Notes: a model not told the origin generated them from the letters alone. A DNA stretch of 64,000 bases from an uncultured Clostridia bacterium (GCA_944388935.1 CALXKK010000001.1:62344-126343); one strand, 5' to 3'. Numbered from the stretch's first letter, positions 23,694 through 47,609 are shown. Made by a program: numbers and translations.

Positions 23694-23748
23694 ATGGGTT
23701 ATTGTATCATAAAAAATTTTTTATTGCCATACCTTTTTTTATTTTTTT

Positions 23749-23777
23749 GAACTCGAGGGACGGAGGTTAAAAGTTCA
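23749..23777 (+). repeat. REP-like hairpin repeat, copy A1 (variant GAACTCGAGGGACGGAGGTTAAAAGTTCA)
   Basis: Member of a 7-copy family in this window. Forms an inverted pair with A2, 17 bp away. Confidence 0.6.
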
Positions 23778-23794
23778 AAGGTTCACATAAAAAA

Positions 23795-23823
23795 TGAACT
23801 TTAAGGTCCGTCCCTAAAGTTCA
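23795..23823 (-). repeat. REP-like hairpin repeat, copy A2 (inverted); overlaps the stop codon of the VanY-like gene
   Basis: TGAACTTTAAGGTCCGTCCCTAAAGTTCA is the reverse complement of the family consensus. Confidence 0.6.
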
Positions 23824-24618
23824 ATTATTTTTTAAATATTCTACATATTCTTCTAAGCATAATCCTAAGTCTTTCATTTCTTTGGCATATTCTGGGCCTA
23901 CATATCTCCAATGCCATGGTTCATATTTTATTTGTGTTATGTCTTCTTTGTCTTTCGGATATCTTAGTATGAATCCATAATTTGCTGCATTTTCTACAAG
24001 CCATGGAAAAGCTGGCTCATCTTCGAATTCATTATCAACATTGTTAAAGTCCACCGCTAATCCTAAATTATGTTCGCTCCTGTATGGCTCTTCTATTCCT
24101 CTTAATGTAAGACTTCTTGCTTCTTCTTCTGTCTTTCCTTGTTCTAAATATTCTTGTATACTTTCTTCTATTAAACGTTTTTGTTTTTCTGGGCTCCTAT
24201 ATGTAGATTGTGCCCATATATTTTTTATTCCTGCTGCTTTCATATCTAGTATCATTTGCGTTAGGCTATCTATAGCTCTTGCATCGAATTGTCTTTCGTT
24301 ATCTATGTTTGCAAGTGGTGGAATATAATCTTCTGACATTTTATTTTCATAATTTACTAAAATTAATTTCCAATCATTTAATTTTCGCAAACTTTCTTCT
24401 GAAGTAACCTGTTCTACAATAGTATTATTATTGTCAATAATATTAGTTTCATTTGAAATGTTATTTGCCATAGCACCAACTTCCTTACTGTTTCCTAAAT
24501 TGTTTAATATATATACTAATATTATACTAACAATCATTATAATTGATACCACAATTCTATATATAAATATAATTTTATTACCTTGCTGTTTAACTTCCTT
24601 TTCTTCCACCATTCTCAC
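23821..24618 (-). CDS. D-alanyl-D-alanine carboxypeptidase, VanY/peptidase M15B family, membrane-anchored
   Basis: N-terminal TM helix, SEHNLGLAVDF (SxHxxGxAxD), EPWHWRYVG. Confidence 0.8.
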   Translation of the reverse strand: MRMVEEKEVKQQGNKIIFIYRIVVSIIMIVSIILVYILNNLGNSKEVGAMANNISNETNIIDNNNTIVEQVTSEESLRKLNDWKLILVNYENKMSEDYIPPLANIDNERQFDARAIDSLTQMILDMKAAGIKNIWAQSTYRSPEKQKRLIEESIQEYLEQGKTEEEARSLTLRGIEEPYRSEHNLGLAVDFNNVDNEFEDEPAFPWLVENAANYGFILRYPKDKEDITQIKYEPWHWRYVGPEYAKEMKDLGLCLEEYVEYLKNN

Positions 24619-24636
24619 CTAACTAAATAATTTTTC

Positions 24637-25641
24637 TTAACTGTTTTTAACTATATAATTCCATGAATCTTTACACATTTGCTTTAGGTCTTTTTCTGCA
24701 ACCCATCCTAATTCATTTTTTGCCTTTGTAGGATCAGAATAACATTTATCTATATCTCCTGCTCTTCTTGGAGCTATTTTATATGGTACTTTTTTACCTG
24801 TTACTTCTTCAAATGTTTTTACAAGGTCTAGAACACTATATCCTTTACCTGTTCCTAAATTGTAAATAAATAAACCTTGTCCTTCTTTTTCTAGTTTTTC
24901 TAATGCATTAATGTGTCCTTTTGCTAAATCCACAACATGAATATAATCTCTTACACCTGTTCCGTCCGGCGTATCATAGTCATTTCCAAAAACAGATAAT
25001 TCTTTTAATGTACCATTTGCAACCCTTACAATATATGGCATTAAATTATTTGGTATACCTTGAGGCTCTTCTCCAATTAATCCACTTTCGTGTGCTCCAA
25101 TTGGGTTAAAATATCTTAAAATAACTATATCCCAAGTATTATCAGATTTATATACATCTTTTAAAATTTGTTCTATAAATAATTTACTAGTTCCATAAGG
25201 ATTTGTTGTTCCTCCTGTTTTGCACTCTTCTGTAATAGGAACAACCTCTGGGTTTCCATACACTGTAGCAGATGAACTAAATACAAATTTCTTAACATTA
25301 TTTTTTCTCATAACATCTAATAATGTTAATGTTCCAGAAATATTATTTGTATAATATTCTATTGGCTTTTGTACAGACTCTCCTACTGCTTTAAATCCTG
25401 CAAAATTTAATACAGCTTCAATATCATTCTCTTTAAATACCTTGTCTAATTTTTCTCTATCCAAATAATTGATTTCGTAAAATTTAAAATCTTTATTTGT
25501 TATTTTTCTAATTGCATCTAATACCTCTGGTTTACTATTAGAGAAGTCATCTATAACAACAACATCCCTATTTGCATTTAATAATTCTATAACAGTATGA
25601 CTACCAATGTAGCCTGCTCCTCCAGTAACTAAAATTGACAT
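24637..25641 (-). CDS. galE: UDP-glucose 4-epimerase
   Basis: MSILVTGGAGYIGSH Rossmann motif, YxxxK (YGTSK) and C-terminal epimerase motifs. GGGAGG SD lies 8 nt upstream of the ATG at 25641. The ORF-track start (25698) lacks an SD. Confidence 0.85.
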   Translation of the reverse strand: MSILVTGGAGYIGSHTVIELLNANRDVVVIDDFSNSKPEVLDAIRKITNKDFKFYEINYLDREKLDKVFKENDIEAVLNFAGFKAVGESVQKPIEYYTNNISGTLTLLDVMRKNNVKKFVFSSSATVYGNPEVVPITEECKTGGTTNPYGTSKLFIEQILKDVYKSDNTWDIVILRYFNPIGAHESGLIGEEPQGIPNNLMPYIVRVANGTLKELSVFGNDYDTPDGTGVRDYIHVVDLAKGHINALEKLEKEGQGLFIYNLGTGKGYSVLDLVKTFEEVTGKKVPYKIAPRRAGDIDKCYSDPTKAKNELGWVAEKDLKQMCKDSWNYIVKNS

Positions 25642-25716
25642 AATTATTACCTCCCATTTATTACAATTATCTATATTATAACTCTTGCGAAAAGACAAAG
25701 TTCAAGAGTTTTGTTT

Positions 25717-26286
25717 TTATTGTTTCTGATATATCTTCTTATATATTTCGTAATCTCTTAAAATTTTTCTTACATAGTTATTAGTTTCTCTAAATGGAAT
25801 ATTCTCTATATCCGAACCATCAGCCGAAATAGTTTCTTCTTGTATCCATTTATCTACATTCCCACTTCCTGCATTATATGCAGTTAATGCTATTGGAACG
25901 CTTTTATATGATTCATATAATGTAGAAAAATATTTAGTTCCTAATTTGATATTTGTTTCTGGATCTTTTAATTCATCTTTTTCGTATTCCATACCTAATT
26001 TTTTTGCTGTATCTTCTGCTGTTGTATCCATAAGTTGCATTAGTCCAACTGCATTACTCTTAGAGACTACATCTGGTTCAAAATTACTTTCAGCTTTAAT
26101 TATTGCATATACCAATAAAGAGTCCACGCCATATTCGTTAGAATATGCTTCTACGTACTCTGAATATTTTTGAGGATAGATTTGTCTTATTATTATTTTA
26201 TGTACTTCAAAGACACCAAAAACTAAATATATTATAGCACATATAAATAGTAATATAACTATTATCTTTAGTAATTTTTTTGTCAT
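25717..26286 (-). CDS. Lytic transglycosylase (SLT domain), membrane-anchored
   Basis: N-terminal TM helix, ...AIIKAESNFEPDVVSKSNAVGLMQLM catalytic Glu/SLT motif, AYNAG. Confidence 0.8.
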   Translation of the reverse strand: MTKKLLKIIVILLFICAIIYLVFGVFEVHKIIIRQIYPQKYSEYVEAYSNEYGVDSLLVYAIIKAESNFEPDVVSKSNAVGLMQLMDTTAEDTAKKLGMEYEKDELKDPETNIKLGTKYFSTLYESYKSVPIALTAYNAGSGNVDKWIQEETISADGSDIENIPFRETNNYVRKILRDYEIYKKIYQKQ

Positions 26287-26406
26287 AATTACCCATATGA
26301 TATATAGAAATATACCATACTCTCCTTTCTTCTAGATTTATTCGTATATACACTTTATAAAGCTTTAAGTAACAATTTTTTCTTTTTATAATTGCAATCT
26401 TATATA

Positions 26407-29112: not shown

Positions 29113-29134
29113 AGGTTCTTCCTCCTATTTAAAA

Positions 29135-30271
29135 CTACATCAAATATTTTTTTGCTATTTCGTAAAAAAGCTGTGTTCCAATTAATATTGTTTTTTCTCC
29201 AACTGTAAAGTTTTCATTATGTTGAGGATAATATACATCTCCACCACAACCAACGAAAATCATACATCCAGGTACTTTTTCTAGATAATATGAAAAGTCC
29301 TCTGAAGTAGTTGTTTGATAATCTGTTACTACATTTTCTGCATCTACAACTTTTTTGGCTAATTTCTGTACTGTTTCTGCTTCTTCTTTAAAATTTACTG
29401 TTACTGGATATTGAACTAAGAATTTTACTTCTGCTCTTCCACCCATTTCTTTTGCAATATTTTCTACAGTACTTACTAATTTTTCTTTCATTTCTTTTCT
29501 TACTTCATTATTATTGGTTCTGCAAATACCTTTCATAAATACTTCGTCTGGAATAACATTATTTGTTTTTCCACCACTTATAGCTGTAACTCCCATAATT
29601 GCTTTTTCATCTATATCTACATCTAGCCTAGCCATTTCTTTTAAAGCAATTCCTATTTTATTGGCTATATAAATAGTATCGACACATTTTTCTGGCATTG
29701 CAGCATGTCCACCTTTACCATATACATAAATATCATATGGGTCTGATGACGCCATTACAGTTCCTGATTTTATTCCAATAGAGCCTTCTTTTAGTTCACT
29801 CCAAACATGTATTGCAAAAGCTTTGTCTACTTTTGGATTTTCCAAAGCTCCATTTTCTACCATTTTGCTAGCTCCTGCGTCTCCTTCTTCGTCTGGTTGG
29901 AATAGTAATTTTACAGTTCCTTTTAATTTGTCTTTGTTGTCCATTAATATTTTAGCAAGAGAAAGTAATATTGTCATATGAGCATCATGACCGCAAGTAT
30001 GCTTGGTTCTGCCTGTTTCGTCCATTATAACAGCATCCATATCACTTCTGAATAATATGCATGGTCCGTCTTCTTTTCCTTTTAATGTTGCAACAATTCC
30101 TGTTGCATAAATATTTTGATTTATATCTGTATAACCCATTTCTTCCAATCTTTGTTTAATATATGCTGATGTTTTAAACTCGCATAAACCTTTTTCTGGA
30201 TGATTCCAAAGATATTCCTTATCCTTTTTCATCTGTGGTTTTAAATCTGTTACTATTTTTTCAATATTCAC
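29135..30271 (-). CDS. M20D-family amidohydrolase (N-acyl-L-amino-acid amidohydrolase / hippurate-hydrolase-like)
   Basis: CGHDAHMTILL metal-binding motif, 378 aa, dimerisation-domain pattern. Confidence 0.75.
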   Translation of the reverse strand: MNIEKIVTDLKPQMKKDKEYLWNHPEKGLCEFKTSAYIKQRLEEMGYTDINQNIYATGIVATLKGKEDGPCILFRSDMDAVIMDETGRTKHTCGHDAHMTILLSLAKILMDNKDKLKGTVKLLFQPDEEGDAGASKMVENGALENPKVDKAFAIHVWSELKEGSIGIKSGTVMASSDPYDIYVYGKGGHAAMPEKCVDTIYIANKIGIALKEMARLDVDIDEKAIMGVTAISGGKTNNVIPDEVFMKGICRTNNNEVRKEMKEKLVSTVENIAKEMGGRAEVKFLVQYPVTVNFKEEAETVQKLAKKVVDAENVVTDYQTTTSEDFSYYLEKVPGCMIFVGCGGDVYYPQHNENFTVGEKTILIGTQLFYEIAKKYLM

Positions 30272-30333
30272 ATTATTACCTTCTTACTTAATTTTTTATT
30301 AAGAGTTTTTAATTAATAAGCCTTCTTATTATT

Positions 30334-31536: not shown

Positions 31537-31559
31537 AGTTTTTACTTCCTTAATTAAAT

Positions 31560-33059
31560 TTAATACATGTAACATTCTATTACCAATGTATTATTTACAA
31601 TTCCATAACCATTTTCATTTTCTTGCAAAACATATTCCCTTAACATATTTGTAGTTAAATCTACCTTTTGTAAATTTCTATCTGTGTAAAAATTAATAAC
31701 TCCATCTGCTGCCCAGTCACATCTAACAGCATTATATGTTACTACAGATTTACGCAAAATGTTTTCAAAATATGTTTTATCACTTTGACCTTTTACCGTA
31801 TATATCGCTATGTTTTCAACTTTTTCATTATTAGTTTGCTCATATTCTTCTATATATTTTTCTATATTTTGCACTTCTTGTTTTTCATATTCATTAACTA
31901 ATTTGTGTTCGTATGTAACTATTATACAATTATATACACTAACAATGCTATAAATTATTAAAATAAAATTAAATATTTTTGTAAAAACTTCGTCATCGTT
32001 TTCCATTATTAGACAAATTAAGACAAATCCTACAATACATCCAACGCAATAATGCAATCTACCAGTATAAAAACTAGACAAAGTTCCTAAAGAAACTAAA
32101 AATGCACATATTACACTTAAAACTATTATGCATATAGATTTTATTGTTAAAAATTTTTCGCTTTTAGTTTTTATATCATAAGCCAAAGTGCAAATTAATA
32201 ATAAACCTAGGAATATATATAATAAATTTGTTGGGAACAGTCCTATATTATCTTTTAAAATACTAGAAAAATTTCTAATAATATATTGCAGATTACTAAA
32301 TATAGAAGATATACCGCCAACTCTTGTTTGAACTTGACCTGTTACACTTCCGATTATATTAACTATTAGCATATTTACACCAACTGCAATAAGTGCAAAA
32401 AATGCTGATATAACAGTGTCTATACAAATTTGTTTTAGATTTTTCTTTATATCTTCCTTTTTACCTTTAAGCTCAACTCTATTTTTTAATAAACTTATGA
32501 AAAATGTAAGTATTATAACAAATCCAGCGGTTCCCTGATATGATATAACTCCAAGTATCGTTAAAACTAAAGCTATAATTTTATTGCCTATGCTCTTGGT
32601 ATTTACTATTAAATCTGCAGAGTATGTAAATAACAATAAACTTAATGCCATTACAATTGATTCTACAAAATACATATCTTCTATGTACATAAAATTAAAT
32701 ATCGTAAAAAATACCGCAATTGTAACTATAATTTCTTTTTTTAGGCTAGTTTTACTATCTACTAAAATAATATTTTTTAATTTTATTACACAAGCACAAG
32801 ATATTAGTATTGCTATTAATAATGTACCTATTACAAATACTTCAATTGGAAAATTAAGTTTTGCAAAAATCATAGTAATTAAATACATTATTAATCTTCC
32901 ATCTTTTAAAGACCAATTAGTAGCATATGTCTCATATCCCACATTCATTATATTATATGTGTCAGCGGAATAATGCATCGTAATCCAACTGATATACATT
33001 ATTACAGCCAATATAAATATTCCAAAAAAGATTAAATAATCTTTTTTTATTTTCTTCAT
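31560..33059 (-). CDS. Polytopic membrane protein (~11 TM plus C-terminal soluble domain); tandem paralogue of 33075-34583
   Basis: Shares the N-terminal motif MHYSADTYNIMNVGY and the C-terminal W(A/S)A(D/I)G(V/T)INFYT(D/G)RN with its neighbour. Family not recognised; possibly a GT-C-like or polymerase-like envelope protein. Confidence 0.4.
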   Translation of the reverse strand: MKKIKKDYLIFFGIFILAVIMYISWITMHYSADTYNIMNVGYETYATNWSLKDGRLIMYLITMIFAKLNFPIEVFVIGTLLIAILISCACVIKLKNIILVDSKTSLKKEIIVTIAVFFTIFNFMYIEDMYFVESIVMALSLLLFTYSADLIVNTKSIGNKIIALVLTILGVISYQGTAGFVIILTFFISLLKNRVELKGKKEDIKKNLKQICIDTVISAFFALIAVGVNMLIVNIIGSVTGQVQTRVGGISSIFSNLQYIIRNFSSILKDNIGLFPTNLLYIFLGLLLICTLAYDIKTKSEKFLTIKSICIIVLSVICAFLVSLGTLSSFYTGRLHYCVGCIVGFVLICLIMENDDEVFTKIFNFILIIYSIVSVYNCIIVTYEHKLVNEYEKQEVQNIEKYIEEYEQTNNEKVENIAIYTVKGQSDKTYFENILRKSVVTYNAVRCDWAADGVINFYTDRNLQKVDLTTNMLREYVLQENENGYGIVNNTLVIECYMY

Positions 33060-33074
33060 ATTATCACCTAAATT

Positions 33075-34583
33075 TTAAATATATGCTAAGAAATATAGAA
33101 TGTTATCCATTATTACGAAATTTCCTTCATATCCTAATTTTCTTTTAGCAGCATACGCATAAAATAAATTTCTGTTAGGATATGCTTCTAAAAAATTATC
33201 CTCAAAATTTCTACCAGTATAGAAATTTATCGTTCCAATAGCAGACCACGTACAAGCAACTCCATCATAAGTTAAAACAGATTGATTCGATATTTCGTTA
33301 AAGTATCCATATTTTTTCATATCTGATAATTTAAAATATCTTGCCTCTGTAATTTTTACATCGTTTTCTTTCTCATAACTTTCGATATATGTTTCCAAGC
33401 CTTCACATTGTTCCTTCTCTAGCTTATTTACTTGTTTGTGCTGATATAATAAATAAATTGTATTTACAATAGTTATAATGTTGTAAGCAATTAAAGTTGC
33501 TATTAACAAATATTTAATAATTGTTTCATCTTCAAATATACTTGTACTACTAAACAAATAAATAAATATTACACCAATTAAAGCTCCTACTGGCACGTGG
33601 ATTCTGCCTGTATCATAACTTGTAATACTAACAATACACATTGCAAATGTTATAAGTACTGTAACAAAACAAATAAAAGCTATATTGAATACTAAGCCAT
33701 ATTTTTTTGCTTTTATTCCATAAATTCCTGCCATTAAAGTAATAATTAATATAATTGAAATCATTAAATAACTTGGGAATAATCCACAATTACTTACCAA
33801 AATAGTATCAAATACCATTTTTTTGAAATTAATTAGTATCCTTAAGAAATAGGTTACTAAATTTTCTATACCATTTAATCTTTCTTGAGTTGTTCCTGCT
33901 ATTGCAGTCGCAACATTTATTTGTATTAAATTTGCAACAAAAGATACTAATGTAATACCTATAATTACCCCAAAATCCTTAAGTATCTCTTTTATCTCTT
34001 TACCATTTTTTGCTATAGAAAAAGCTACACCATACAACGCAAATAAGCCGATTGTACCCTGATAACAAAATGTTGCTAATATAGCTAACAATGTAGCTTT
34101 TATAATATAAAAATCACTTCTCTTTATAATTTGATTAACTGCTAGTATATAGAATAATATACTAAATGCCATTACTGCAGATTCTACAAAGTATAAATTT
34201 TCTACATACATAAAATTAAATATTGTACAATATGATATTAAAATTGCAATAAACTCTTGTAATTTCGTTTTCTTTGTAGAGAATTTCATAATTATATTTT
34301 TTAATACAATAACAGCAATGCATGATACAACTAAAGCAATAACAGTTAAAGTTATTACATAAACATTAATAGGAATGTTTATTGTATTTGCAAGCATCCC
34401 TATTAAAAACATAAATATTCTTCCATCACTTAAAGAATTATTTATTGCATATGTTCTATATCCTATATTCATTATATTATATGTATCTGTTGCATAATGC
34501 ATAGATACGTAATTCCAAAAAACAGCCCCAGTTATTACAAATAAAATAAAAAATAGTATTATGTTTTTTGTTCTCTGTTTCAT
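33075..34583 (-). CDS. Polytopic membrane protein, paralogue of 31560-33059
   Basis: MHYATDTYNIMNIGYRTYAINNSLSDGRI..., same architecture as its neighbour. Confidence 0.4.
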   Translation of the reverse strand: MKQRTKNIILFFILFVITGAVFWNYVSMHYATDTYNIMNIGYRTYAINNSLSDGRIFMFLIGMLANTINIPINVYVITLTVIALVVSCIAVIVLKNIIMKFSTKKTKLQEFIAILISYCTIFNFMYVENLYFVESAVMAFSILFYILAVNQIIKRSDFYIIKATLLAILATFCYQGTIGLFALYGVAFSIAKNGKEIKEILKDFGVIIGITLVSFVANLIQINVATAIAGTTQERLNGIENLVTYFLRILINFKKMVFDTILVSNCGLFPSYLMISIILIITLMAGIYGIKAKKYGLVFNIAFICFVTVLITFAMCIVSITSYDTGRIHVPVGALIGVIFIYLFSSTSIFEDETIIKYLLIATLIAYNIITIVNTIYLLYQHKQVNKLEKEQCEGLETYIESYEKENDVKITEARYFKLSDMKKYGYFNEISNQSVLTYDGVACTWSAIGTINFYTGRNFEDNFLEAYPNRNLFYAYAAKRKLGYEGNFVIMDNILYFLAYI

Positions 34584-34665
34584 ATTTTCTCCTATTCTTT
34601 TGTAATTGTGATTAATTATTTTTTTCTATACAATCATATAATTTTTTCTATAAATATTCAAGGTC

Positions 34666-36222: not shown

Positions 36223-36231
36223 TGTCTCCTC

Positions 36232-37266: not shown

Positions 37267-37351
37267 TTTTATCCCTCGTTTTTTATCTTTTAGCTACTAT
37301 ACTATACCATTTTTTTTATATTCTTTCAACACATATTGACCTCTTATCCAA

Positions 37352-38314: not shown

Positions 38315-38337
38315 TTCTACATTCCCCCCTATACAAC

Positions 38338-38377
38338 AAAAAAACTATATACTTTTATTGTAGTATATAGTTTTTTT
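38338..38377. terminator. Bidirectional hairpin terminator downstream of the 1115-aa gene
   Basis: AAAAAAACTATATACT-tttattgt-AGTATATAGTTTTTTT. Confidence 0.5.
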
Positions 38378-38407
38378 ATTATAATATGTTTCATGTGTTT
38401 TTTACGT

Positions 38408-38420
38408 GAACTTTAGGGAC
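38408..38420 (+). repeat. Partial REP-like repeat, copy B (GAACTTTAGGGAC followed by local palindrome TAGGGAcaaTCCCTA)
   Basis: 5' half of the family consensus only. Confidence 0.4.
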
Positions 38421-38425
38421 AATCC

Positions 38426-41400
38426 CTATCTTTCATCTCTTTCATCACTTTCTTTTCTTATTTCCTCCATAACAGATTTCACCATCTGTCGTTTTTCTAC
38501 ACTTAATGATGACATATCTACTTGTGCATCTTGTGCTCCTATTTGTTTTAATGCTTTCTTCACTTGATAACGTATATGATTTTCCGCTTTTTGCTTTTGC
38601 TCCTCGGTTAACCCCTCTCTTAATGGTGAAGATAAAACATTTCCGATTTTTATTTTTTCATCATCTTGACTATAAATAATAGCCATTCTTGCAGTAGCCA
38701 ATACCCTCGTAGTATTTGGGTCAAGCCCATATTCTTCCGCTACAGTATTCATAAGTCTTTCAGATTTTTTAAGTTGTTCATCATCACCTGTTTCATTAAA
38801 ATATACTGTATTATTGTTTTCAGATTCTCGGTCCATTCTTCTTAATGTTAATAGCACTCTATCTGTCATATTTGTACTATCATACAAAGGAATATCATCT
38901 TGATGAACATATAAGTTTTCTTGCTTAGATTCTACAATTCCATCCCTTTCTGCAATTGTATATTGAATTTTTGCATCAGTATATGGATTTGGTAATCTTC
39001 TTGTAGATTTCACACCTACTGTATCACTTTCTTGATGTATAGTTTTATCCGATTTTATTGCACTCGCAATATCATTATATCCTAAGCCAATTGTTACTTT
39101 GCCTAATACTAATGAATCATATTGTTCTTGCGTAATATCTCCTTTTTTTAACAATTCTTGATATACTCTTTTGTCTTCTTCCATTAAATCTTGTGCTGCT
39201 TTTTTATAGACGCCTAAAACCTCTGCTGCTAAGCCTTTTCTTCCTTTATCAGGATGTTCTGTTTCATATAACCTAAAAATCCTATTGGGTATTTCTATAT
39301 TATCAAAACAGCCTGTGTATTGATTTCTCCAAAACCAACTTTGTGCAACCAATCTTCCTTCTTCATCTTTTACACAAAAAACTCTACCATCAGGGGATAC
39401 AACGCTATGCTCCATACTTGTTTGGCCAGCTCCATGTATTTCTTGGCAACAATCTGTAAGTGTTCCAATTGTTAATGCTAGTGGGTCATCACATCTAAGC
39501 ATTTCGTATGTATACCCATTAGTTTTTCCTTGTATTCTGGGAATACTAGAAAAATCCCTAGTTTCACCTTCATTAAATAGTTTTTGTATAGCTTCAAAAT
39601 CTTCTTGAGAATATCCAGCTATTTTGGCTTGTTCGGCAACTCCCTCATTACCAATATCAATATTAGAATACACTATACTTCTTATATATGCTTGTGCTAC
39701 GTCCCAAGTTAATTTCCTACCAGCATTTGTTCTAACAATATCCTTAAATTGTCTTTGCATTGTAGCAATATCTTTACTATATTCAGGATTTGACAATATT
39801 TCGTCACAATTTTCTACAAAAAATTTAACAAAGTCCGGATTATATTCCATTTTAAAAGAATCAAATATCTGATGAGCTTTAATTGGAGTTAAGATTCTGG
39901 GAAAATCTGCTTCCTCTAATATTCCTCTAACTGTCTTTGTTCTATTCTTGTCACTTTGTGCATTAAATGATAAATTATACTTTCCATCTTTTCCTATTTT
40001 ATATGCTTGTTCTAAAATTGTTTGTAGCTCTTTATTATTTCTATTATAGCTAATTGATTGCATTACTTGTTCATATTCTTCGGCAGATAAATCCTTTGGA
40101 AGTCCTGCAAATAATTCCATTGTCCTATTAAATCCTTCATTATCACCTTGGAATACTCCCATGCTATACGCTGCTTTTAAAAGTGCTGCTTTACCATCGT
40201 TATTACGATTATAAAAATCTATGGTCATTAATTTAGACCATTTTTTCCCATTTGCCAAGAAACTATCAATTTCTTCTTCTGGGAAATTTATCATAACAAC
40301 AAAATTAGGTAAAAATCTTCCACCTGTTGCTTTATACCAACTTTCCAAAGTGCTAACTCTATGGTAACTTACCATTTTATCAATAGTTACTGGATCTCTT
40401 GCTCCTAATTTCATTAATGTATCACTATCAAATTTTCTAAACAATTCGTCATAATTTGGCATAAATGCTAGCCTTATATCTTTTCCTTGTAAAAATTCTT
40501 TCCATTCCGGATATCTCTTTATTAATTCGAAATTTAATTTGATACTAACGTTAGTATCATGTAATTTATTATTATAATACAATGTTTTTAATAATTCTGG
40601 TGCCTCATTATCCAAAAACATCTCCGGACGTCTTTTCTTAAAAAAGTCAGGAATTGTTTCGATAAAAGGAGATTTTCTAGTTAAAATATTCTCCTCTATA
40701 TTTTGCTGTATTGCTCTTTCTTTATCTTGCTTACTTTGACCTTCCACAAAAATTCCAGCGTTAACACCTTCCAAAAATTCTCCGTACTTTTCTGCAAAAT
40801 ATATTATCTCTTGCTCTGTAAGTTTTTCCCACATTGGTCTTACTTCTCTTTGTCTTTGACCATATCTTAGTGGTTTGCATTTTGTATTTCCAAATCCTAC
40901 ACCAATATCTTTTGACAATAATATCTCCCTTAATTGTGGGTTCTGCCTTACATCTTCAAAAGTTAAATCTCCTGAATAAAACTTATTTCTTAATTTTTCA
41001 TCAACCTCTTCTGGAAGAAATAAGTCTGGATGCTTTTCTTTAAAACTTGATGGTAATTCTTCAAAATATACCATTCCCTTATCTTTTATTTCTCCATATA
41101 TAGCATCTTCAATTTTTTCTCTAATACTTTCAAGTGTAAAATCTCTTGAAATGGACAATGATATACTATCTAAGCATTTTCCATAGTCAGCACAAATCCT
41201 TAAGAACTCCTCTTGACCTATTTTTTCTATAACATATTTAGCCATATTTACCTTTTTTCCTTGTAATATTTGTATAAGTTCTGGATTTTGTCTGATATCC
41301 TCAGCACTCATATGTCCTCTATAAAATTTATTTTTTATTGAAACATTAACACCATCTATAAATATATCAGGATGCTCATCTCTAAAACTTCCTGTTATAA

Positions 41401-41773
41401 AATCATAATCAGCGAAAACTCCTGTTTCTATACCTTGCCCTTTTTCTCTTGCATGAAGCAGAATTTCATACATTCTATTTTTAAAATCATCATAGCTTAA
41501 TTCTCCAGAATTAATATCTTTTGAATTTTCTTCATTGCCTGCATATGTATTTGAATCAGAAATAGCAAACACTGTAAGATATATATCATTCCCCCATAAT
41601 GTATGAGAAAACATCCCATTAGTTTCTTCATCCAACCTAATTATATTATCTATTCCATATTTTGTTATAAATCTTCTTTTACTCTCCGAATGTGGTCCCA
41701 TACTGATAGAATCAATAGGAATTTTTTCTATTTCCAGTAATTCTTTAATTCGGTGTAAATCTAATACTTCCAT
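38426..41773 (-). CDS. Large (1115 aa) repeat-containing intracellular protein of unknown function
   Basis: No signal peptide or TM segment. Three ~45-aa internal repeats (xHPD[IL]F...NKFY.G.[LM][ST].ED[IV]RQNP.L..IL). Central Cys/His-rich block LRCDDPLALTIGTLTDCCQEIHGAG...RVFCVKDEEGR. Acidic coiled-coil tail. AAGGAG SD. Confidence 0.5.
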   Translation of the reverse strand: MEVLDLHRIKELLEIEKIPIDSISMGPHSESKRRFITKYGIDNIIRLDEETNGMFSHTLWGNDIYLTVFAISDSNTYAGNEENSKDINSGELSYDDFKNRMYEILLHAREKGQGIETGVFADYDFITGSFRDEHPDIFIDGVNVSIKNKFYRGHMSAEDIRQNPELIQILQGKKVNMAKYVIEKIGQEEFLRICADYGKCLDSISLSISRDFTLESIREKIEDAIYGEIKDKGMVYFEELPSSFKEKHPDLFLPEEVDEKLRNKFYSGDLTFEDVRQNPQLREILLSKDIGVGFGNTKCKPLRYGQRQREVRPMWEKLTEQEIIYFAEKYGEFLEGVNAGIFVEGQSKQDKERAIQQNIEENILTRKSPFIETIPDFFKKRRPEMFLDNEAPELLKTLYYNNKLHDTNVSIKLNFELIKRYPEWKEFLQGKDIRLAFMPNYDELFRKFDSDTLMKLGARDPVTIDKMVSYHRVSTLESWYKATGGRFLPNFVVMINFPEEEIDSFLANGKKWSKLMTIDFYNRNNDGKAALLKAAYSMGVFQGDNEGFNRTMELFAGLPKDLSAEEYEQVMQSISYNRNNKELQTILEQAYKIGKDGKYNLSFNAQSDKNRTKTVRGILEEADFPRILTPIKAHQIFDSFKMEYNPDFVKFFVENCDEILSNPEYSKDIATMQRQFKDIVRTNAGRKLTWDVAQAYIRSIVYSNIDIGNEGVAEQAKIAGYSQEDFEAIQKLFNEGETRDFSSIPRIQGKTNGYTYEMLRCDDPLALTIGTLTDCCQEIHGAGQTSMEHSVVSPDGRVFCVKDEEGRLVAQSWFWRNQYTGCFDNIEIPNRIFRLYETEHPDKGRKGLAAEVLGVYKKAAQDLMEEDKRVYQELLKKGDITQEQYDSLVLGKVTIGLGYNDIASAIKSDKTIHQESDTVGVKSTRRLPNPYTDAKIQYTIAERDGIVESKQENLYVHQDDIPLYDSTNMTDRVLLTLRRMDRESENNNTVYFNETGDDEQLKKSERLMNTVAEEYGLDPNTTRVLATARMAIIYSQDDEKIKIGNVLSSPLREGLTEEQKQKAENHIRYQVKKALKQIGAQDAQVDMSSLSVEKRQMVKSVMEEIRKESDERDER

Positions 41774-41830
41774 ACACTACTCCTTCTTGTGAATTTTAGA
41801 GGCTGTTGGAAACTCTAATTTAGTTCCTTC

Positions 41831-42811
41831 TTATAACAAATTTGGATATAGCATTTTCTTTTTTCTTAAAAGCAAATCTATATCTATATTTACAACATCT
41901 TTTATTAACGGACTGCTATTTACAGAAATTGTATCTGTTTTTACTTCTCTTAAAAATTTTGATGCATTTTGTTTGTCTTCTGTGAATATGCTACTGCTAT
42001 ATCCTGATGTATTATAGTTTATTTGTGCTATAGCTTCGTCTATATCCTCTACTTCTATAAAATCCTCATCATCTTCTAAAGGTAGTTTTAAACCACTTTT
42101 TACATATACATCTATATTTCTATTTTCTTTTAATATCTTTTCTATAAACTCTAAATGAGTTATATCTTCTATATACAAATCAAATTTATTGTAGCCTTTA
42201 ACAATTACCTCTATATTTGAGATTCTTTTTATCTTGTTTTGAAAGTCCCTATTTCCAACTGCTATTACTTTGTTTATACTTATATTGTTAGAAAGTAATT
42301 CTTCTAAATTGCTTGTATAAATTATTTGTACCAAGTTTTTATCAACTTTATATGCTTCTAAAACTCTTTGAACCAATATTAATATCAATTCATTCGTAGC
42401 TTTCATATAATCTGACTCACTTGCTATTATTAATGCATTATGAGTTAATATTGCTTTTAAAACTAGTTCTAATAAGCAATATGTATTTCCATCATATACT
42501 AAGCAAACTGTTCCTAGATTATCTGTTTGCTCGCCTTCTATGTAATTATTTTCGTTTTTATGCATATAAATAACTTTTCTATATGAATCTTCTATATCTG
42601 CCAATTTATCTTTTAGGATATTTATAATTTCGAAATCTAAAGCAAAACCATTATTATTTTTTACATCTATCTCGTTTGCTTTTTTTATACTTTCTGCATC
42701 TTCTTGTATTAAGTCAAAAATGCTGCTTACAATCTTCTTTGCATCAACATTCATATCCATATTAGTGTAAGACATAGTAGCATTTCCCAATATTTCTCTA
42801 ATATTATCCAT
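41831..42811 (-). CDS. Degenerate gamma-glutamyl-phosphate-reductase (ProA)-like / ALDH-fold protein, probably non-catalytic
   Basis: GTVCLVYDGNTYCLLELVLKAILTHNALII and SSIFTEDKQNASKFLREVKTDTISVNSSP resemble ProA segments, but the catalytic-Cys region is absent. Start moved to the ATG at 42811 (AGAGGTG SD). The track start is GTG. Confidence 0.4.
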   Translation of the reverse strand: MDNIREILGNATMSYTNMDMNVDAKKIVSSIFDLIQEDAESIKKANEIDVKNNNGFALDFEIINILKDKLADIEDSYRKVIYMHKNENNYIEGEQTDNLGTVCLVYDGNTYCLLELVLKAILTHNALIIASESDYMKATNELILILVQRVLEAYKVDKNLVQIIYTSNLEELLSNNISINKVIAVGNRDFQNKIKRISNIEVIVKGYNKFDLYIEDITHLEFIEKILKENRNIDVYVKSGLKLPLEDDEDFIEVEDIDEAIAQINYNTSGYSSSIFTEDKQNASKFLREVKTDTISVNSSPLIKDVVNIDIDLLLRKKKMLYPNLL

Positions 42812-42835
42812 ACTATCTTGCACCTCTTTCTTTCT

Positions 42836-42857
42836 GAACTTTAGGAACGAATCTTAG
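42836..42857 (+). repeat. Degenerate REP-like repeat, copy C (GAACTTTAGGAACGAATCTTAG), abutting the RBS of the ProA-like gene
   Basis: Matches the consensus at ~17 of 22 positions. Confidence 0.35.
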
Positions 42858-42932
42858 CTATGCATATAGCCCACTCTAACGAAATTAAAAATTTCTAGAG
42901 TGGCTTAAAAGGTTCGGATTTTATGTTAATCT

Positions 42933-43892
42933 TTAAAAGTCTCTATCAAAACCTTCATCATTAATTTCTTGAGAAACCTTCTTGCCCCTAGAAAAAATGC
43001 CTCTTAAACTTGATTGAAGTCGTGTTAAATTTCCAGTACTTCTTCCAAACGCAATTTTTTGTACTTCTCCTCCTCCAAAACCGCTAGGAGAATTTGCTGT
43101 TGCTCTTACACTTCTAGTTTTACCTTCATCTAAAAATCTTGACTTCTCTTGAACCATATCTATAAACTCTTCAAAAGTATAGACCTTAGAAGCATCCAAC
43201 CTAGATTCTTGCATCCATTTTTGTACTCTAGCTTTATTCTCCGGTGATGTAAAAATGCCAAATAACTGCTCGGGATTTCTTTTTAGGTTTACTGAGCCCA
43301 TTGCGTCCATTATTTTAAGCTTTTCATCTTGCTTACCTTTTGGTAGAAGAGCAAAAACACATCCGCAAGGCAATGAACGTTCATATGCAGTTAAATCTGT
43401 ATAGAATGCTACTGTTCTATTCATAGATCTCACTGTTGTAGCCGAAATTTCTCCCTTAGGATTTGTAGATTTTACAAATCCATTATACCTATCTGCAGAA
43501 GAAGAAATATTTCCACTTCTAATAATTTGCTCCGCATAATAAATTGGAGTACCATGAAATCTTAAATCCAATTTATCTGAAATAACAGCATTAAGTCTTG
43601 CTGAAAATGTTCTAAACTGATAAATTCTATAATTCATATCTTCAGCATTATTAGGTCTAATAAATTTAGCAGTAAGTTTTACTTCTTCGATATTATATTT
43701 CCATTTTTCAACTTCCATATATGCTTCCATATACTCTACAGATCTTCTACCATACCTTCTTCTAGTTACATTTAAATCTTGCATAGCATCTGCTAAGCTT
43801 TTATTATATCTATTAAATTTAGAATTTAGGATTTCTCTATCCTTCTCATATAATTTTTGTGGATCTGTTTCTCTCCTTATTCCATTCTTCAT
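42933..43892 (-). CDS. Hypothetical protein (~320 aa); N-terminus of the ORF-track model is REP-derived
   Basis: The track ORF begins MLDNINIIFELLRSVPKVQSS, which is the in-frame translation of REP copy D. The likely true start is ATG 43892 (MKNGIRRETD) or 43910. No family recognised. Weak R/S-T-N/E-Q pattern only. Confidence 0.4.
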   Translation of the reverse strand: MKNGIRRETDPQKLYEKDREILNSKFNRYNKSLADAMQDLNVTRRRYGRRSVEYMEAYMEVEKWKYNIEEVKLTAKFIRPNNAEDMNYRIYQFRTFSARLNAVISDKLDLRFHGTPIYYAEQIIRSGNISSSADRYNGFVKSTNPKGEISATTVRSMNRTVAFYTDLTAYERSLPCGCVFALLPKGKQDEKLKIMDAMGSVNLKRNPEQLFGIFTSPENKARVQKWMQESRLDASKVYTFEEFIDMVQEKSRFLDEGKTRSVRATANSPSGFGGGEVQKIAFGRSTGNLTRLQSSLRGIFSRGKKVSQEINDEGFDRDF

Positions 43893-43917
43893 TTTATCTT
43901 TACACCTCATCTGTTTT

Positions 43918-43953
43918 GAACTTTGAACTTTGGGGACGGACCTTAAAAGTTCA
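43918..43953 (+). repeat. REP-like repeat, copy D (extended form TTGAACTTTGAACTTTGGGGACGGACCTTAAAAGTTCAAATATTATGTT)
   Basis: Near-identical over ~50 nt to copy E. Confidence 0.6.
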
Positions 43954-43989
43954 AATATTATGTTAATATTATCTAACATCTATTTTTAT

Positions 43990-44289
43990 CTACTTTAATC
44001 CGTTCTCATTCCAATGTTCCTTAAGTTCTTCTTTTTCATCATCTGTCGCAATATAGCTATAATAAATTAATGCTAATAAATCCTTGGCTGTTTCAGAAAT
44101 ATTTTGTTCACTTAAATCCTTATTAAAATCTAATTTTACTATGATAGTAGCTTTACTTGCCAAATCTTTTAATTTTAATATAAAATTTTCAGGAATTTTC
44201 ATAGTAATTTCTGGATCTAAATATTCTAAAATACATAATACTTCTTGGGCAGCATTATAAATTTCCGTTTGTTCCATCTTTAGCTTCAC
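43990..44289 (-). CDS. Hypothetical small protein (99 aa)
   Basis: ORF with SD. Acidic, helical. No motif recognised. Confidence 0.4.
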   Translation of the reverse strand: MKLKMEQTEIYNAAQEVLCILEYLDPEITMKIPENFILKLKDLASKATIIVKLDFNKDLSEQNISETAKDLLALIYYSYIATDDEKEELKEHWNENGLK

Positions 44290-44312
44290 TCCTTTTAGAT
44301 AAATCTAAAATT

Positions 44313-45365
44313 TTATTTCTTTTCCATATTTTTTGTTTCTAAAAGTAATTTATCAAAATCTGATGTTATTTTTTGATGTTTGTTAAATTCGTTATATTCC
44401 TTTTCTGCCTTTTCCTCAGCCATTCTTCTAGAAATTTTTCCATTATCCTTTAATATATCATATTTTCTAAATTCCAAGAATTCATTAACACTTTTTGCAA
44501 ATTCCTCCATTGTGAATGTGTTTTCTCTTTCTACTAAATCTTCTATATAATCAAAATAACCAGATATCGCTCTTTCTAGTCTTTTTATTTGTTTTTCTTC
44601 TAAATAGTTTTTTGCTATCATTACATCTGATTTTAAAATTCTTCCATCTGGTGAGTTCTTCCATGTTGTTAATCCCATATTTTCTTTAGTATGATCTGCT
44701 TTTTGATATATGATTTCTGCTGCTGTATTTCCTGTTATTGCATAATGAAATTTATTTTGTATCATAGCATAAAATTTCTTTGTAATCTCTGAATCTTTAT
44801 CATAATCAATACTGCATTCTGCAAATATATCTGTTATCTGTTGCCAAATTCTTCGTTCGCTTGTTCTAATTGAACGAATTCTTTCTAAAAGTTCTTTAAA
44901 ATAATCTTTTCCAAATTTAGGTCCATTTTTTAATAATTCATCATTTAACACAAAACCTTTTTTTATGTATTCTTTTAATGTATTAGTTGCCCAAATTCTA
45001 AAGTCAGTAGCTTCTTTTGAATTAACTCTATAACCCACTGCAATAATAGCATCTAAACTATAAAAAGTTAATTCTCTTGAAACACTTCTATTTCCTTCTT
45101 TTTGAACTGTTCGAATTTTTCGAATAGTTCGATTTTCCTCTAATTCATGAGTTTCAAAAATCTCTTTTAAATGATAATTTATAGTATTTACTTCAACATT
45201 AAATAATTTTGACATCGATTTTTGAGTTAACCAAAAATCTTCATTGTCGTATAATACTTCTACAGATATACTTTCATTGTTTTTACTTTGATATATAATT
45301 AAATCTCTTAAATATTCTAATTTGCTCACCATTTCACACTCCTTTTTTTGTGTTTTGTCATTCAA
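44313..45365 (-). CDS. RhuM-family (virulence protein RhuM-like) protein
   Basis: FWLTQKSMSKLFNV...IRKIRTVQKEGNRSVSRELTFYSLDAIIAVGYRVNSKEATDFRIWATNTLKEYIKKGFVLNDELLK is a close match to the RhuM-family core. Confidence 0.75.
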   Translation of the reverse strand: MNDKTQKKECEMVSKLEYLRDLIIYQSKNNESISVEVLYDNEDFWLTQKSMSKLFNVEVNTINYHLKEIFETHELEENRTIRKIRTVQKEGNRSVSRELTFYSLDAIIAVGYRVNSKEATDFRIWATNTLKEYIKKGFVLNDELLKNGPKFGKDYFKELLERIRSIRTSERRIWQQITDIFAECSIDYDKDSEITKKFYAMIQNKFHYAITGNTAAEIIYQKADHTKENMGLTTWKNSPDGRILKSDVMIAKNYLEEKQIKRLERAISGYFDYIEDLVERENTFTMEEFAKSVNEFLEFRKYDILKDNGKISRRMAEEKAEKEYNEFNKHQKITSDFDKLLLETKNMEKK

Positions 45366-45375
45366 ATTTTCCCTC

Positions 45376-46416
45376 CTATTTTTTTATTAAATCTTTTGAA
45401 TAATAATACATATCAACACATTGCATATTTCCATCCCATAATTCTTCATTATAATTATCTATAAAGAAATTTTTTATTGTCTTTTCATATTTATCAAATC
45501 CTTGTTTAACATAGAATGGTATGTTATTTTCTGTTGTTCCTACAATCATATTTTTATATCTTGGCTTATAGTTATCTGCCAAATATTTTATCATTTTTTT
45601 GCCATATCCTTTGCCTCTGTAGTTTTCTTTAGTTGCTATGTTTTTTAACTCTACAGTATCATTATCAACCTTTGTTACCACAGAAACGCAAACAGGTTCA
45701 TCTTTATATGTTAATACAAACAAGTCCCCATCAGCTAAGTACTTTCTAACTATCTCTTCGCTTGGATCTGCCTCAAGAAGTAACTCTAAATATTGCTCCT
45801 TATTTTCTCTTTCTTTTCTTATATTAATAGAAGGGTTCACAGGTAAGAACTCAAAACCTTCTGGTAATTTTGGTGGTTGGAAATCCTCACCTAAATATCT
45901 ACCTCTCTCGGAAAAGATGCAACCACAATACTTTTGAATATACAAGCCTAATTCTCTGGCTTTTGCTTGTCCAACTTTAAATCCAACTCTAAAATCTCTA
46001 TACAAAAAGTCTAAACCATATTTTTTCGCAATCACTTCACCTAATTTTTTTATAACGTCATGTTTTTGATATGGACTTACTAAAAGTGTTGTAGTAATTG
46101 TATCAAATCCATGCTCCTTCGCATACTTTGCTGTTTGCTCCAAACGAACTGGATAACAATAATCTTGGCATCTTGTTTCCAAAGAATCTACTACATTTTT
46201 GCAAAACTTATCTAAGCCATAATCATCTTCGAAAATGGCTTCCACATTTATGCTCTTAGTATATTCTTTTAAGCAATCTCTTCTTGCCTTATACTCTGTA
46301 TATGGATGAATATTAGGGTTAAACCAATAAACTGTTGGCTCTATTCCTTCATCTCTTAGTGAATCTATGCAATATACACTACAAGGTGCACAGCACGTAT
46401 GCATTAATAATTTCAT
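45376..46416 (-). CDS. Fusion protein: epoxyqueuosine reductase QueH (DUF208) N-terminus plus GNAT acetyltransferase C-terminus
   Basis: MKLLMHTCCAPCSVYC is the hallmark QueH Cys cluster, with further Cys (CQDYC, CGC). The C-terminus ...ELKNIATKENYRGKGYGKKMI is a GNAT acetyl-CoA-binding motif. GGAGGAG SD lies 4 nt upstream of the ATG at 46416. The track ORF's first 39 aa are REP-derived. Confidence 0.65.
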   Translation of the reverse strand: MKLLMHTCCAPCSVYCIDSLRDEGIEPTVYWFNPNIHPYTEYKARRDCLKEYTKSINVEAIFEDDYGLDKFCKNVVDSLETRCQDYCYPVRLEQTAKYAKEHGFDTITTTLLVSPYQKHDVIKKLGEVIAKKYGLDFLYRDFRVGFKVGQAKARELGLYIQKYCGCIFSERGRYLGEDFQPPKLPEGFEFLPVNPSINIRKERENKEQYLELLLEADPSEEIVRKYLADGDLFVLTYKDEPVCVSVVTKVDNDTVELKNIATKENYRGKGYGKKMIKYLADNYKPRYKNMIVGTTENNIPFYVKQGFDKYEKTIKNFFIDNYNEELWDGNMQCVDMYYYSKDLIKK

Positions 46417-46429
46417 TTTTCTCCTCCTT

Positions 46430-46465
46430 GAACTTTGAACTTTAGGGACGGACCTTAAAAGTTCA
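46430..46465 (+). repeat. REP-like repeat, copy E (extended form), 3' flank of the RAYT gene
   Basis: GAACTTTGAACTTTAGGGACGGACCTTAAAAGTTCA followed by a partial second copy (GTGAACTTTTAAA). Confidence 0.6.
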
Positions 46466-46587
46466 AATATTATGTGAACTTTTAAATCAGTACCATTCCA
46501 ATCATTCCTATTTACCAATATTATTCCTTGCATGAATTCAGGTTATATCAGTAATTCATATACCTGCTCTTGACTTGTTCATCAACA

Positions 46588-47355
46588 TTATTCGTGTATC
46601 AATCTATGTATTTTTAATCTATTAACACCTATAATCTCTGCTATTTCCTTCTGTGTGAATCTGTATTTTTTATTCATAATTATAGATATTTCCTTTAAAT
46701 ATTTATTATCATATTTTAAAACGCTAATATTAATAATATTCTTTTTTCGTAAGAATTCATCTAGCACTTGTAATTTCAAATTATTTTTATCTTTTAAGTC
46801 TTCGTCATCCATAAAATTATAGTCAGTTGAATCTTTTATCAATATTGTATTTAAATCAATATTATATGTACTCAAAATTTTTAACACTTTATTTTTGTTT
46901 ATCAAATATTCTTTATTCTTAAATTCCTTATAACTTGAGAATTTGTATTCTGATTGATTGTTGCATATTTTCGCTTTTACCGGATTATTATGAATATAAT
47001 GTATACAATTTATCAAATATTTCCTAGATATAATTTCCTCAGACTTAAATCTATCTCTAAACACATATCCACATCTATCGTGATTTTTATTATAGTAGAT
47101 GGCATAACTTGTATTAACCTTTTTCATTAATTTAGAAACCAAATTTATATCTTGAGAATATACTAAAAAATGAGCATGATTATTCATAATACAGTATGTA
47201 ACTATGTATACATCAAAACTCTTTAGTTTTTCCTTTATAATTTTTAAATATACTTCGACATCTTTTTCTTTATTGAATATATATTCTCTATTTATCCCTT
47301 GTATCATAATGTGTATAAATTTAGAATTTATTTCTTTTCTTGCTCTTCGTGGCAC
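46588..47355 (-). mobile_element. REP-associated tyrosine transposase (RAYT; IS200/IS605-like Y1 HUH transposase, COG1943-type) with C-terminal HTH extension
   Basis: MPRRARKEINSKFIHIMIQGINREYIF N-terminus, HUH motif NHAHFLV, catalytic-Tyr helix IHYIHNNPVKA, C-terminal HTH FTQKEIAEIIGVNRLKIHRL. Flanked by inverted REP copies E and F. Confidence 0.7.
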
Positions 47356-47580
47356 GCAAAAACCTCCTTTAAAATATTAATTTTTGCCCCCACTTTTAAC
47401 TTAAAATTAATTTAAATTGACATTAATCTTATAAGTTTTTTCTTATGTGATGTATTATACCAAATTTATCATCTTATGTAAACATTAACCAGTTTATTAA
47501 CCATAATATTCCATTCTCTTGTTATTCAACAATTTTACCATTCTATTACCACATCATCATTATTTTTTATGTAACCCGAT

Positions 47581-47609
47581 GAACTTTTAAGGTCCGTCCC
47601 TAAAGTTCA
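47581..47609 (-). repeat. REP-like repeat, copy F (inverted), 5' flank of the RAYT gene; overlaps the last codons and stop of the membrane-protein gene
   Basis: GAACTTTTAAGGTCCGTCCCTAAAGTTCA is the reverse complement of the consensus. Confidence 0.6.

Follow-up and report, generated by a model that had tools for sequence, protein, structure and literature searches.

A 64,000-nucleotide stretch of DNA from an uncultured Clostridia bacterium (GCA_944388935.1, CALXKK010000001.1:62344-126343), which we refer to as the window, carries several copies of a short hairpin-forming repeat between its genes, and the question it raises is what this repeat is and how it has spread. A sequence-only reading had proposed that the copies form a mobilised family of repetitive extragenic palindromes (REPs), poorly documented in clostridia, and the literature that could be searched agrees with the latter point. 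That reading had named three observations that would count against it (a family restricted to this locus, its absence from the rest of the genome, and no association with homologues of REP-associated tyrosine transposases, RAYTs), none of which we made, and our analysis supports the proposal. With a probability of roughly 0.85, the repeat is a REP/REPIN-type nonautonomous hairpin family accompanied by its cognate, probably single-copy, RAYT-like Y1 (HUH) nuclease/transposase. Judged from its sequence, the gene at 46588-47355 is most likely what spreads the hairpins. The proposal needs one refinement, which is that the family is a variant tied to a Y1 protein bearing a helix-turn-helix (HTH) and not a canonical REP of the GTAG type.

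A dispersed family of extragenic hairpins

The repeat is a 30-mer, TGAACTTTAGGGACGGACCTTAAAAGTTCA, present in the window as five intact copies and two remnants, where the number expected by chance is zero. When up to three mismatches are allowed, the 29-mer matches at 43925-43953 (+, one mismatch), 46437-46465 (+, exact), and 47580-47608 (-, exact), and it has no match in 100 dinucleotide-preserving shuffles. The G/C-rich core GGGACGGACC is found four times against 0.1 expected, a 40-fold excess, which adds a site at 23805-23814 (-). A profile made from all copies and run with nhmmer recovers exactly the seven sites listed by the sequence-only reading and none besides in the 64 kb. The window is ~28% G+C, and its - strand carries nearly all genes.

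Each repeat unit is a hairpin of 29-30 nt, in which an A/T-rich stem bears the conserved GGGACGGA at the tip, and the 3' tail that comes next (..TTATGTTAA..) is conserved as well. Folding shows that the paired arms, TGAACTTT(A)/(T)AAAGTTCA, span 9-10 bp and not the 7 nt previously reported. As single-stranded DNA (ssDNA), single hairpins fold at -7.5 to -8.4 kcal/mol with z scores of -4.4 to -5.9, e.g., -7.5 kcal/mol (z -4.4) for copy F and -8.4 kcal/mol (z -4.5) for copy E.

The copies sit tightly between genes. A1 (23748-23777, +) and A2 (23795-23823, -, followed by TTTTTTATGT), both strong profile matches, are separated by a 17-nt spacer and make up an inverted, REPIN-like doublet (23748-23823) that folds into one long hairpin, either as DNA (-18.4 to -19.6 kcal/mol) or as RNA (-33.5 kcal/mol, z -7.4). 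A1 had been described as a variant without the conserved core; it is a variant, but it keeps GGGACGGA and differs only by a CC->GG change. The VanY gene ends at a TGA stop provided by A2, and copy F (47580-47609, -, an exact match upstream of the RAYT-like gene) contains the TAG stop (47600-47602) of the PMT_2 glycosyltransferase gene, so that the overlap with stop codons noticed earlier holds for both. Closeness to ribosome-binding sites (RBS) holds as well. Copy E (46436-46465, +, an exact match downstream of the RAYT-like gene) has its hairpin foot 8 nt from the Shine-Dalgarno (SD) sequence of the QueH-GNAT gene, and the foot of copy D (43924-43953, +, one mismatch), which lies between orf99 and orf348, is 31 nt upstream of the refined orf348 start codon. 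D and E belong to a common 51-nt unit (43916-43966 and 46428-46478, respectively) with 96% identity, in line with the ~50 nt of extended identity first seen by eye. The two remnants are a half-copy C, TGAACTTTAGGGAC (38407-38420, +, 12.8 bits with nhmmer), directly past the stop of an open reading frame (ORF) of 1115 aa, and a decayed copy spanning 42835-42929 (+). The latter consists of a left half, TGAACTTTAGGAACGAATCTTAG (42835-42857, 11.2 bits), which adjoins the SD of the gene at 41831-42811, and ~45 nt beyond it a possible right arm with tail, CTTAAAAGGTTCGGATTTTATGTTAA (42904-42929); the segment 42879-42929 has 65% identity to the D/E unit. The ~45 nt that split this copy (42858-42903) hold an inverted repeat of their own (CCACTCTA..TAGAGTGG), possibly a terminator or a small insertion.

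How the hairpins are paired becomes clear when the window is taken together with locus L001 and with relatives (loci are designated by L numbers). Fourteen of 19 adjacent pairs are inverted and tail-to-tail with a common spacer of ~17-18 nt, and the unit is therefore ~78 nt long, composed of a REP, a spacer, and an inverted REP, as in a REPIN. Because doublets join inverted REPs, the conserved tail past the hairpin comes in two forms, ..TTTATGTTAA.. or its reverse complement ..TTAACATAA... Many singlets retain a decayed partner arm beyond the tail, such as GAACTTTTAAAT at 46477-46488 beside copy E. The form commonest in relatives is a 29-mer, TGAACTTTAGGGACGGA[G/C]CTTAAAGTTCA, with one A fewer than the 30-mer of the window.

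The family is widespread in related genomes. A scan of a collection of species-representative genomes with TGAACTNNNGGGACGGANNTTAAA returned at least 80 stretches, and the copy numbers that follow are lower bounds. These stretches come from 10 uncultured gut metagenome-assembled genomes (MAGs) labelled Clostridium or Clostridia (CAG:354, UMGS1570, HGM13682, and several bins), the nearest relatives of the window being syntenic with 77-93% DNA identity. In a profile search of the scanned loci, the window, and L001, we counted at least 122 copies, or 69 distinct sites after collapsing orthologous copies, orthology among MAGs being partial and handled by flank clustering alone. Each MAG has at least 3-40 copies, spread over dozens of contigs, and the family is thus not confined to the locus in which it was noticed. 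MAG assemblies may collapse or break at such repeats. The copies are strictly extragenic. ORF interior makes up 81% of the DNA examined and yet contains none of 113 copies (genes were called with a simple ORF and SD rule). Relative to transcription, 42 copies are sense and 47 antisense; the sense copies adjoin or contain the upstream stop codon, and the antisense copies end a few nucleotides before the SD of the next gene. At 36 of 49 distinct tandem-context sites, the spacer has ACATAA when read in the mRNA sense (Fisher p 0.0017; 55 of 74 uncollapsed). Genes being co-oriented, this skew may reflect a bias relative to replication, as would be expected for single-strand transposition. A phage origin of the repeat was rejected, as a scan of viral contigs gave 0 matches.

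A Y1 gene flanked by matching hairpins

A gene at 46588-47355 (-), within the interval originally noted but overlooked by the sequence-only reading, is bracketed by copies F and E. These two form an inverted repeat of 30 nt with 100% complementarity and 1114 nt between the arms. F-gene-E is a REPtron layout, i.e., REP(+), gene, REP(-). The encoded 255-aa protein has a Y1 nuclease domain at its N terminus and an HTH domain at its C terminus. It matches Pfam Y1_Tnp (E 4e-11), and its best NCBIfam model is NF047646, the REP-associated tyrosine transposase (E 2e-15, 56.8 bits, model positions 4-146 of 146). Both catalytic motifs are intact, NNHAHFLV (HUH) and YIHNNPVKA (catalytic Tyr); in 38 homologues H60, H62, Y120, and S140 are invariant, S141 is nearly so, and G96-V98-F99-R102 is invariant as well. 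The GTG start is confirmed because homologues begin with MPRKARK. In an AlphaFold (AF2) model with a pLDDT of 87, an extra helical domain is seen at residues ~187-254, and the closest fold in the PDB is 4er8_A, the E. coli RAYT with a REP hairpin (E 1e-5, target TM 0.64, root-mean-square deviation 2.8 Å), followed by the TnpA proteins of IS608 and ISDra2. By sequence, a single query found nothing in the PDB, and a profile found 4ER8 at E 0.032 only. Sigma70_r4 or other HTH models match the C-terminal domain in 22 of the 38 homologues, and the window protein itself has a weak sigma-70 match at residues 133-254. Its family is large, with 2,148 clusters at 50% identity (E<=1e-30), mostly of ~250 aa. 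An exact look-up of the window protein had a 1.1-kb Logan contig as its sole match.

The gene and the hairpins are linked across relatives. L025, L022, and L082 have REP(+)-gene-REP(-) at the same RuvB-PMT_2-gene-QueH position as the window, with proteins at 56-75% identity (tblastn), and synteny is kept down to a relative at 58% identity by BLASTP (56% by tblastn). In ~680 kb of REP-containing DNA from relatives, with no complete genome among them, the Y1 gene is present only at the orthologous site. Relatives at 42-52% identity sit elsewhere, e.g., beside polA, and are still flanked by inverted GGG(G)AC-tipped hairpins, which read, as stem-tip-stem, TGAACTTTA-GGGACGTTCCT-TAAAGTTCA in L083, TGAAATTTA-GGGACGCTTGA-AAAATTTCA in L084, and GAACTTTT-GGGGACAGTCTT-AAAAGTTC in L086. 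A metagenome scan added 80 loci, and the comparison covered 88 that encode relatives of the protein at 28-100% identity. Among loci with enough flank, GGGAC is found upstream of the gene in 64 of 73 (GTCCC in 7); downstream, the usual form is GTCCC, in 65 of 75 (GGGAC in 11). The orientation rule holds in ~87% of the flanks examined. The motif lies within a helix of at least 6 perfect bp, a criterion that undercounts imperfect stems, in 47 of 80 upstream and 35 of 78 downstream flanks compared to 6.4% of random positions. Stems vary by lineage (ATTGCCA, CTGTTTTT, AAGGAAAAG, GAGTCA, CAGGCAA, and GTGTCAAG), and, despite short flanks, extra copies with the same stem are found more than 600 nt from the gene in 16 loci. 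Because GGGGAC(G/A)G is invariant across the clade while the stems vary, the tip would be the sequence-specific determinant and the stem would be structural.

In some distant lineages (L114, L125, L104-L107, and L130), single hairpins beside the Y1 gene are replaced by head-to-tail tandem arrays of 3-6 GGGAC-tipped units of ~13-36 nt. Separately, a second hairpin family, GGGATTTGGGGACGTTCCTTAAATCCC, is found directly 5' of some REP copies in relatives (L035, L075, L076, L071, and L026). It has another stem and the same GGGGACG tip, and its partner may be a second Y1 gene carried by these relatives.

Alternatives and known systems

Several points weigh against a REP/REPIN-type family with a cognate RAYT-like protein. 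At orthologous sites we saw no clean presence/absence difference, only doublet, singlet, or tandem configurations. The scanned collection excludes the genome of the window, and the window itself has copies only at 23.7-47.6 kb. In BRZ_HS_bin74, the relative with the most copies (at least 40), the orthologous Y1 gene (L025, 2033-2799) is in two frames, which means either a pseudogene or an assembly error. The NF047646 score of the window protein is below the curated cutoff of 80 bits. Finally, the element has no GT[AG]G foot and carries instead an invariant GGG(G)AC(G/A)G at the hairpin tip, and in an alignment to 4ER8 the E. coli residues that contact GTAG, W94/Q95, are replaced by F99/R100 (E100/H101/R104 align to S105/E106 and a variable residue).

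Could the gene then be an ordinary selfish insertion sequence of the IS200 type, with the dispersed hairpins as miniature inverted-repeat transposable elements (MITEs) or solo-end derivatives (PATE-like)? We consider this unlikely. The protein is in the same Y1 superfamily, but the IS200 model NF033573 reaches only E 0.004 and 17.4 bits against a cutoff of 55, far from the E value of the RAYT model. Hairpins adjacent to the gene are also typical of IS200/IS605 ends, whose left and right copies, however, share one orientation, whereas those flanking the window gene are inverted. Relatives below ~54% identity do occur in other genomic contexts, which requires past movement of the gene; against this stand the one syntenic position among housekeeping genes, held down to the 58% relative, and the lack of a second gene copy in the ~680 kb of REP-rich DNA. 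There is also no tnpB.

Less probable still, by about half, is that the hairpins are host regulatory elements unrelated to the Y1 gene, be they terminators, mRNA 3'-end stabilisers, translation modulators, or operators of one regulon. Their placement exactly at stop codons or a few nucleotides before an RBS would suit such a role, but the split into 42 sense and 47 antisense copies argues against a strand-specific RNA element. A2 does score as a terminator, yet a T-run is present in only one of five window copies, and we rejected a general terminator role since only A2 qualifies, none is predicted in 46300-47700 (which covers E and F, with D outside the scan), and both orientations occur. RBS sequestration was also rejected, as the hairpin folds on its own and the RBS is left free, RNA folds in context being unremarkable (z -0.75 and +0.27). 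Riboswitch and small RNA readings were dropped because no Rfam family reached its gathering threshold anywhere in the window. The stem TGAAC..GTTCA resembles a dimeric operator, but the neighbouring genes have no common function, and regulation would leave unexplained the lineage-matched hairpins that flank the Y1 gene in dozens of distant lineages. Secondary co-option of single copies, such as the terminator-like A2, is plausible. As for a chance or low-complexity resemblance, the A/T-rich arms and composition of the genome might invite it, but it is dismissed by the empty shuffles, the 40-fold excess of the core, and the recurrence of the sequence in 10 other genomes.

A REP/REPIN-type family served by a RAYT-like protein remains the preferred explanation, and a comparison with known systems shows which kind of family it might be. 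The window element resembles REPIN-RAYT systems, or REPtrons (E. coli TnpA-REP/YafM with REP/BIME and the REPINs of P. fluorescens), in being made of short, dispersed, extragenic hairpin repeats, many of them at stop codons. Inverted doublets fold into a long hairpin, singlets look like decayed doublets, and one Y1/HUH gene, with 4ER8 as its best fold, lies between inverted repeats at a conserved chromosomal site. Besides the missing foot, the change from WQ to FR in the residues that contact it, and the score below the RAYT cutoff, it differs in that its protein has an extra C-terminal HTH of ~110 aa and in that its host belongs to a low-G+C clostridial lineage and is not a proteobacterium. 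Canonical REPs have a 5' GT[AG]G foot and flank TnpA-Y1 proteins of subclasses 2.2, 2.4, 2.5, 2.7, and 2.8 (Quentin et al. 2018, PMC6006769). Bertels et al. found that Group 1 RAYTs reach Clostridia with few associated 16-mers, and they regarded Groups 1, 4, and 5 as co-opted single-copy genes.

A closer relation is suggested by TnpA-Y1 subclass 2.1, which consists of long proteins with a C-terminal HTH and was reported to have no REP-like sequences nearby (PMC6006769). The TIRtrons/TIRYT of Di Nocera et al. (2013, PMC3733652) have been equated with this subclass (Quentin et al. 2018, PMC6006769). Their repeats were described as terminal inverted repeats of which only some are self-complementary (PMC3733652), and the published TIRYT and subclass 2.1 examples are mostly from Proteobacteria and Acidobacteria (PMC3733652, PMC6006769). 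The window system shares with them 1) a long Y1 protein with a C-terminal HTH, 2) flanking inverted repeats with a GGGGWSAS-like motif, matched at 7 of 8 positions by GGGACGGA / GGGGACGG in the window and exactly (8 of 8) by GGGGACAG in L086, 3) a Ser motif past the catalytic Tyr together with a guide-recognition region whose motif is not WQ, and 4) moderately sized repeat families that occur in dimers or clusters. It is unlike them in that its motif lies in a clear REP-type hairpin with lineage-specific stems, in that the family is dispersed, with the at least 40 copies seen in one relative, and in its clostridial host. Judged by such features and not by the authors' profiles, the element best fits the HTH-bearing Y1 subclass (TIRYT / subclass 2.1). 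It would therefore work like a REPIN-RAYT system and fits the TIRYT / subclass 2.1 description.

Two further comparisons are instructive. With IS200/IS605 elements (IS608, ISDra2) and their MITEs, the window gene shares the Y1 HUH fold and the catalytic motifs, and their recognition of subterminal hairpins on single-stranded DNA serves as a mechanistic model; it differs by the lack of tnpB, by having no second copy in the DNA examined, by its inverted ends, and by its weak IS200 match. Among other small dispersed repeats of Firmicutes, the BOX, RUP, and SPRITE elements of Streptococcus pneumoniae resemble the window repeat in being short, structured, and extragenic in a Gram-positive host, and an IS630-type transposase is believed to mobilise RUP. 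To our knowledge, none of the three is associated with a Y1 nuclease, and we know of no sequence resemblance between them and the window repeat.

Proposed mechanism, significance, and neighbouring genes

How might the hairpins spread? Catalysis, mobilisation, and any host function we infer from sequence, and the steps that follow are modelled on better known relatives. The mobile unit is likely the inverted doublet of ~78 nt, i.e., a REP, a 17-18-nt spacer, and an inverted REP. If it acts as E. coli TnpA-REP and IS608 TnpA do (PMC3479197, PMC6006769), the protein would bind the hairpin once this has folded on single-stranded DNA, probably at the replication fork. Cleavage beside the hairpin would proceed via Tyr120, with a 5'-phosphotyrosine and a metal bound by the HUH motif, and doublets would be excised, copied, and reinserted. 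The GGG(G)AC tip motif might play the part of the GTAG foot in canonical REPs, and the C-terminal HTH would add DNA binding. More speculatively, the target of the HTH may be the double-stranded core GGGAC-N-GTCC, which is partly palindromic, or else the leader motif GTGGGGGCAAAAAT (see below); binding to the latter would give autoregulation. Singlets would arise by decay of doublets, copies would survive only where a stop codon and the ribosome-binding site that comes next leave a short gap, and some have probably been co-opted, A2 as a terminator for example. We rejected a specific insertion target, as the 5' flanks show only T/A-richness and a host SD at variable spacing. The simplest explanation for the tight fit between stop and SD is purifying selection in a 90%-coding genome, where only insertions that leave both signals intact are kept. 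Packing between stop and RBS thus explains the geometry, and no target specificity is needed.

Upstream of the RAYT-like gene, two candidate control sites were found on the same strand. A promoter-like site at 47454-47482 (-), between copy F and the gene, was identified by consensus match; it reads TTTACA, 17 nt, TG-n-TATAAT and agrees at 11 of 12 positions plus the extended -10 TG. A leader motif, AAAAGTGGGGGCAAAAAT (47380-47397, -), lies ~25-30 nt upstream of the start codon and recurs as (A)GTGGGGGCAAAAAT at the matching position in L082, L083, L084, and L086, whose proteins are 42-58% identical. It might serve as a site of autoregulation or as an element of the leader.

The literature that we could search treats REPIN-RAYT systems as mainly gammaproteobacterial, plus Neisseria. 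The locus described here is a compact, sequence-defined case from gut Clostridia of an HTH-bearing Y1 protein with a dispersed hairpin population, and it comes with a testable rule: a GGGGAC-tipped hairpin with a variable stem, in one orientation upstream of the gene and in the other downstream. This offers biochemistry a concrete substrate for a Y1 subclass without a known target, aids annotation of the many "transposase" genes and intergenic repeats in gut MAGs, and flags repeats able to break metagenome assemblies. Repeats at stop codons or ribosome-binding sites could affect expression. A wider generalisation, to which we give slightly less than even odds, is that the HTH-bearing Y1 clade as a whole maintains lineage-specific hairpin populations, read via the GGGGAC(G/A)G tip instead of a GTAG foot, and that the repeat units are also junctions that capture and move accessory genes such as the RhuM / PDC-S05 candidate. 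This would amount to a large, essentially undescribed REPIN-type system outside Proteobacteria, of which the window may show one member.

The accessory gene in question belongs to the RhuM family (window 44313-45365, -), is a defence candidate in PADLOC (PDC-S05, E 6e-154), and varies in its position around the repeats. In the window, RhuM comes after QueH, and the D/E units of 51 nt enclose the segment QueH-RhuM-orf99. In L025 (2901-4127), RhuM has the Y1 gene on one side and QueH on the other and is enclosed by a direct duplication of 95 nt (REP, tail, and SD), and in L127 (1901-2806), a distant relative, a RhuM homologue directly follows the Y1 gene. L082 keeps the synteny and has no RhuM, and the available L022 sequence ends just past the Y1 gene. 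This arrangement may be the result of repeat-mediated cassette capture.

Some other features of the window are recorded here. Three ORFs, the 1115-aa one at 38426-41773 (-), 42933-43892 (-), and 43990-44289 (-), have no match in Pfam, NCBIfam, or PADLOC. Direct repeats with a period of 447-450 nt occupy 62576-63992, within the ORF at 61089-63659 and past it, which suggests that this ORF encodes a protein with repeated domains. Lastly, two adjacent paralogous genes for GtrII-type glucosyltransferases (31560-34583, -) share an 86-nt stretch at 79% identity.

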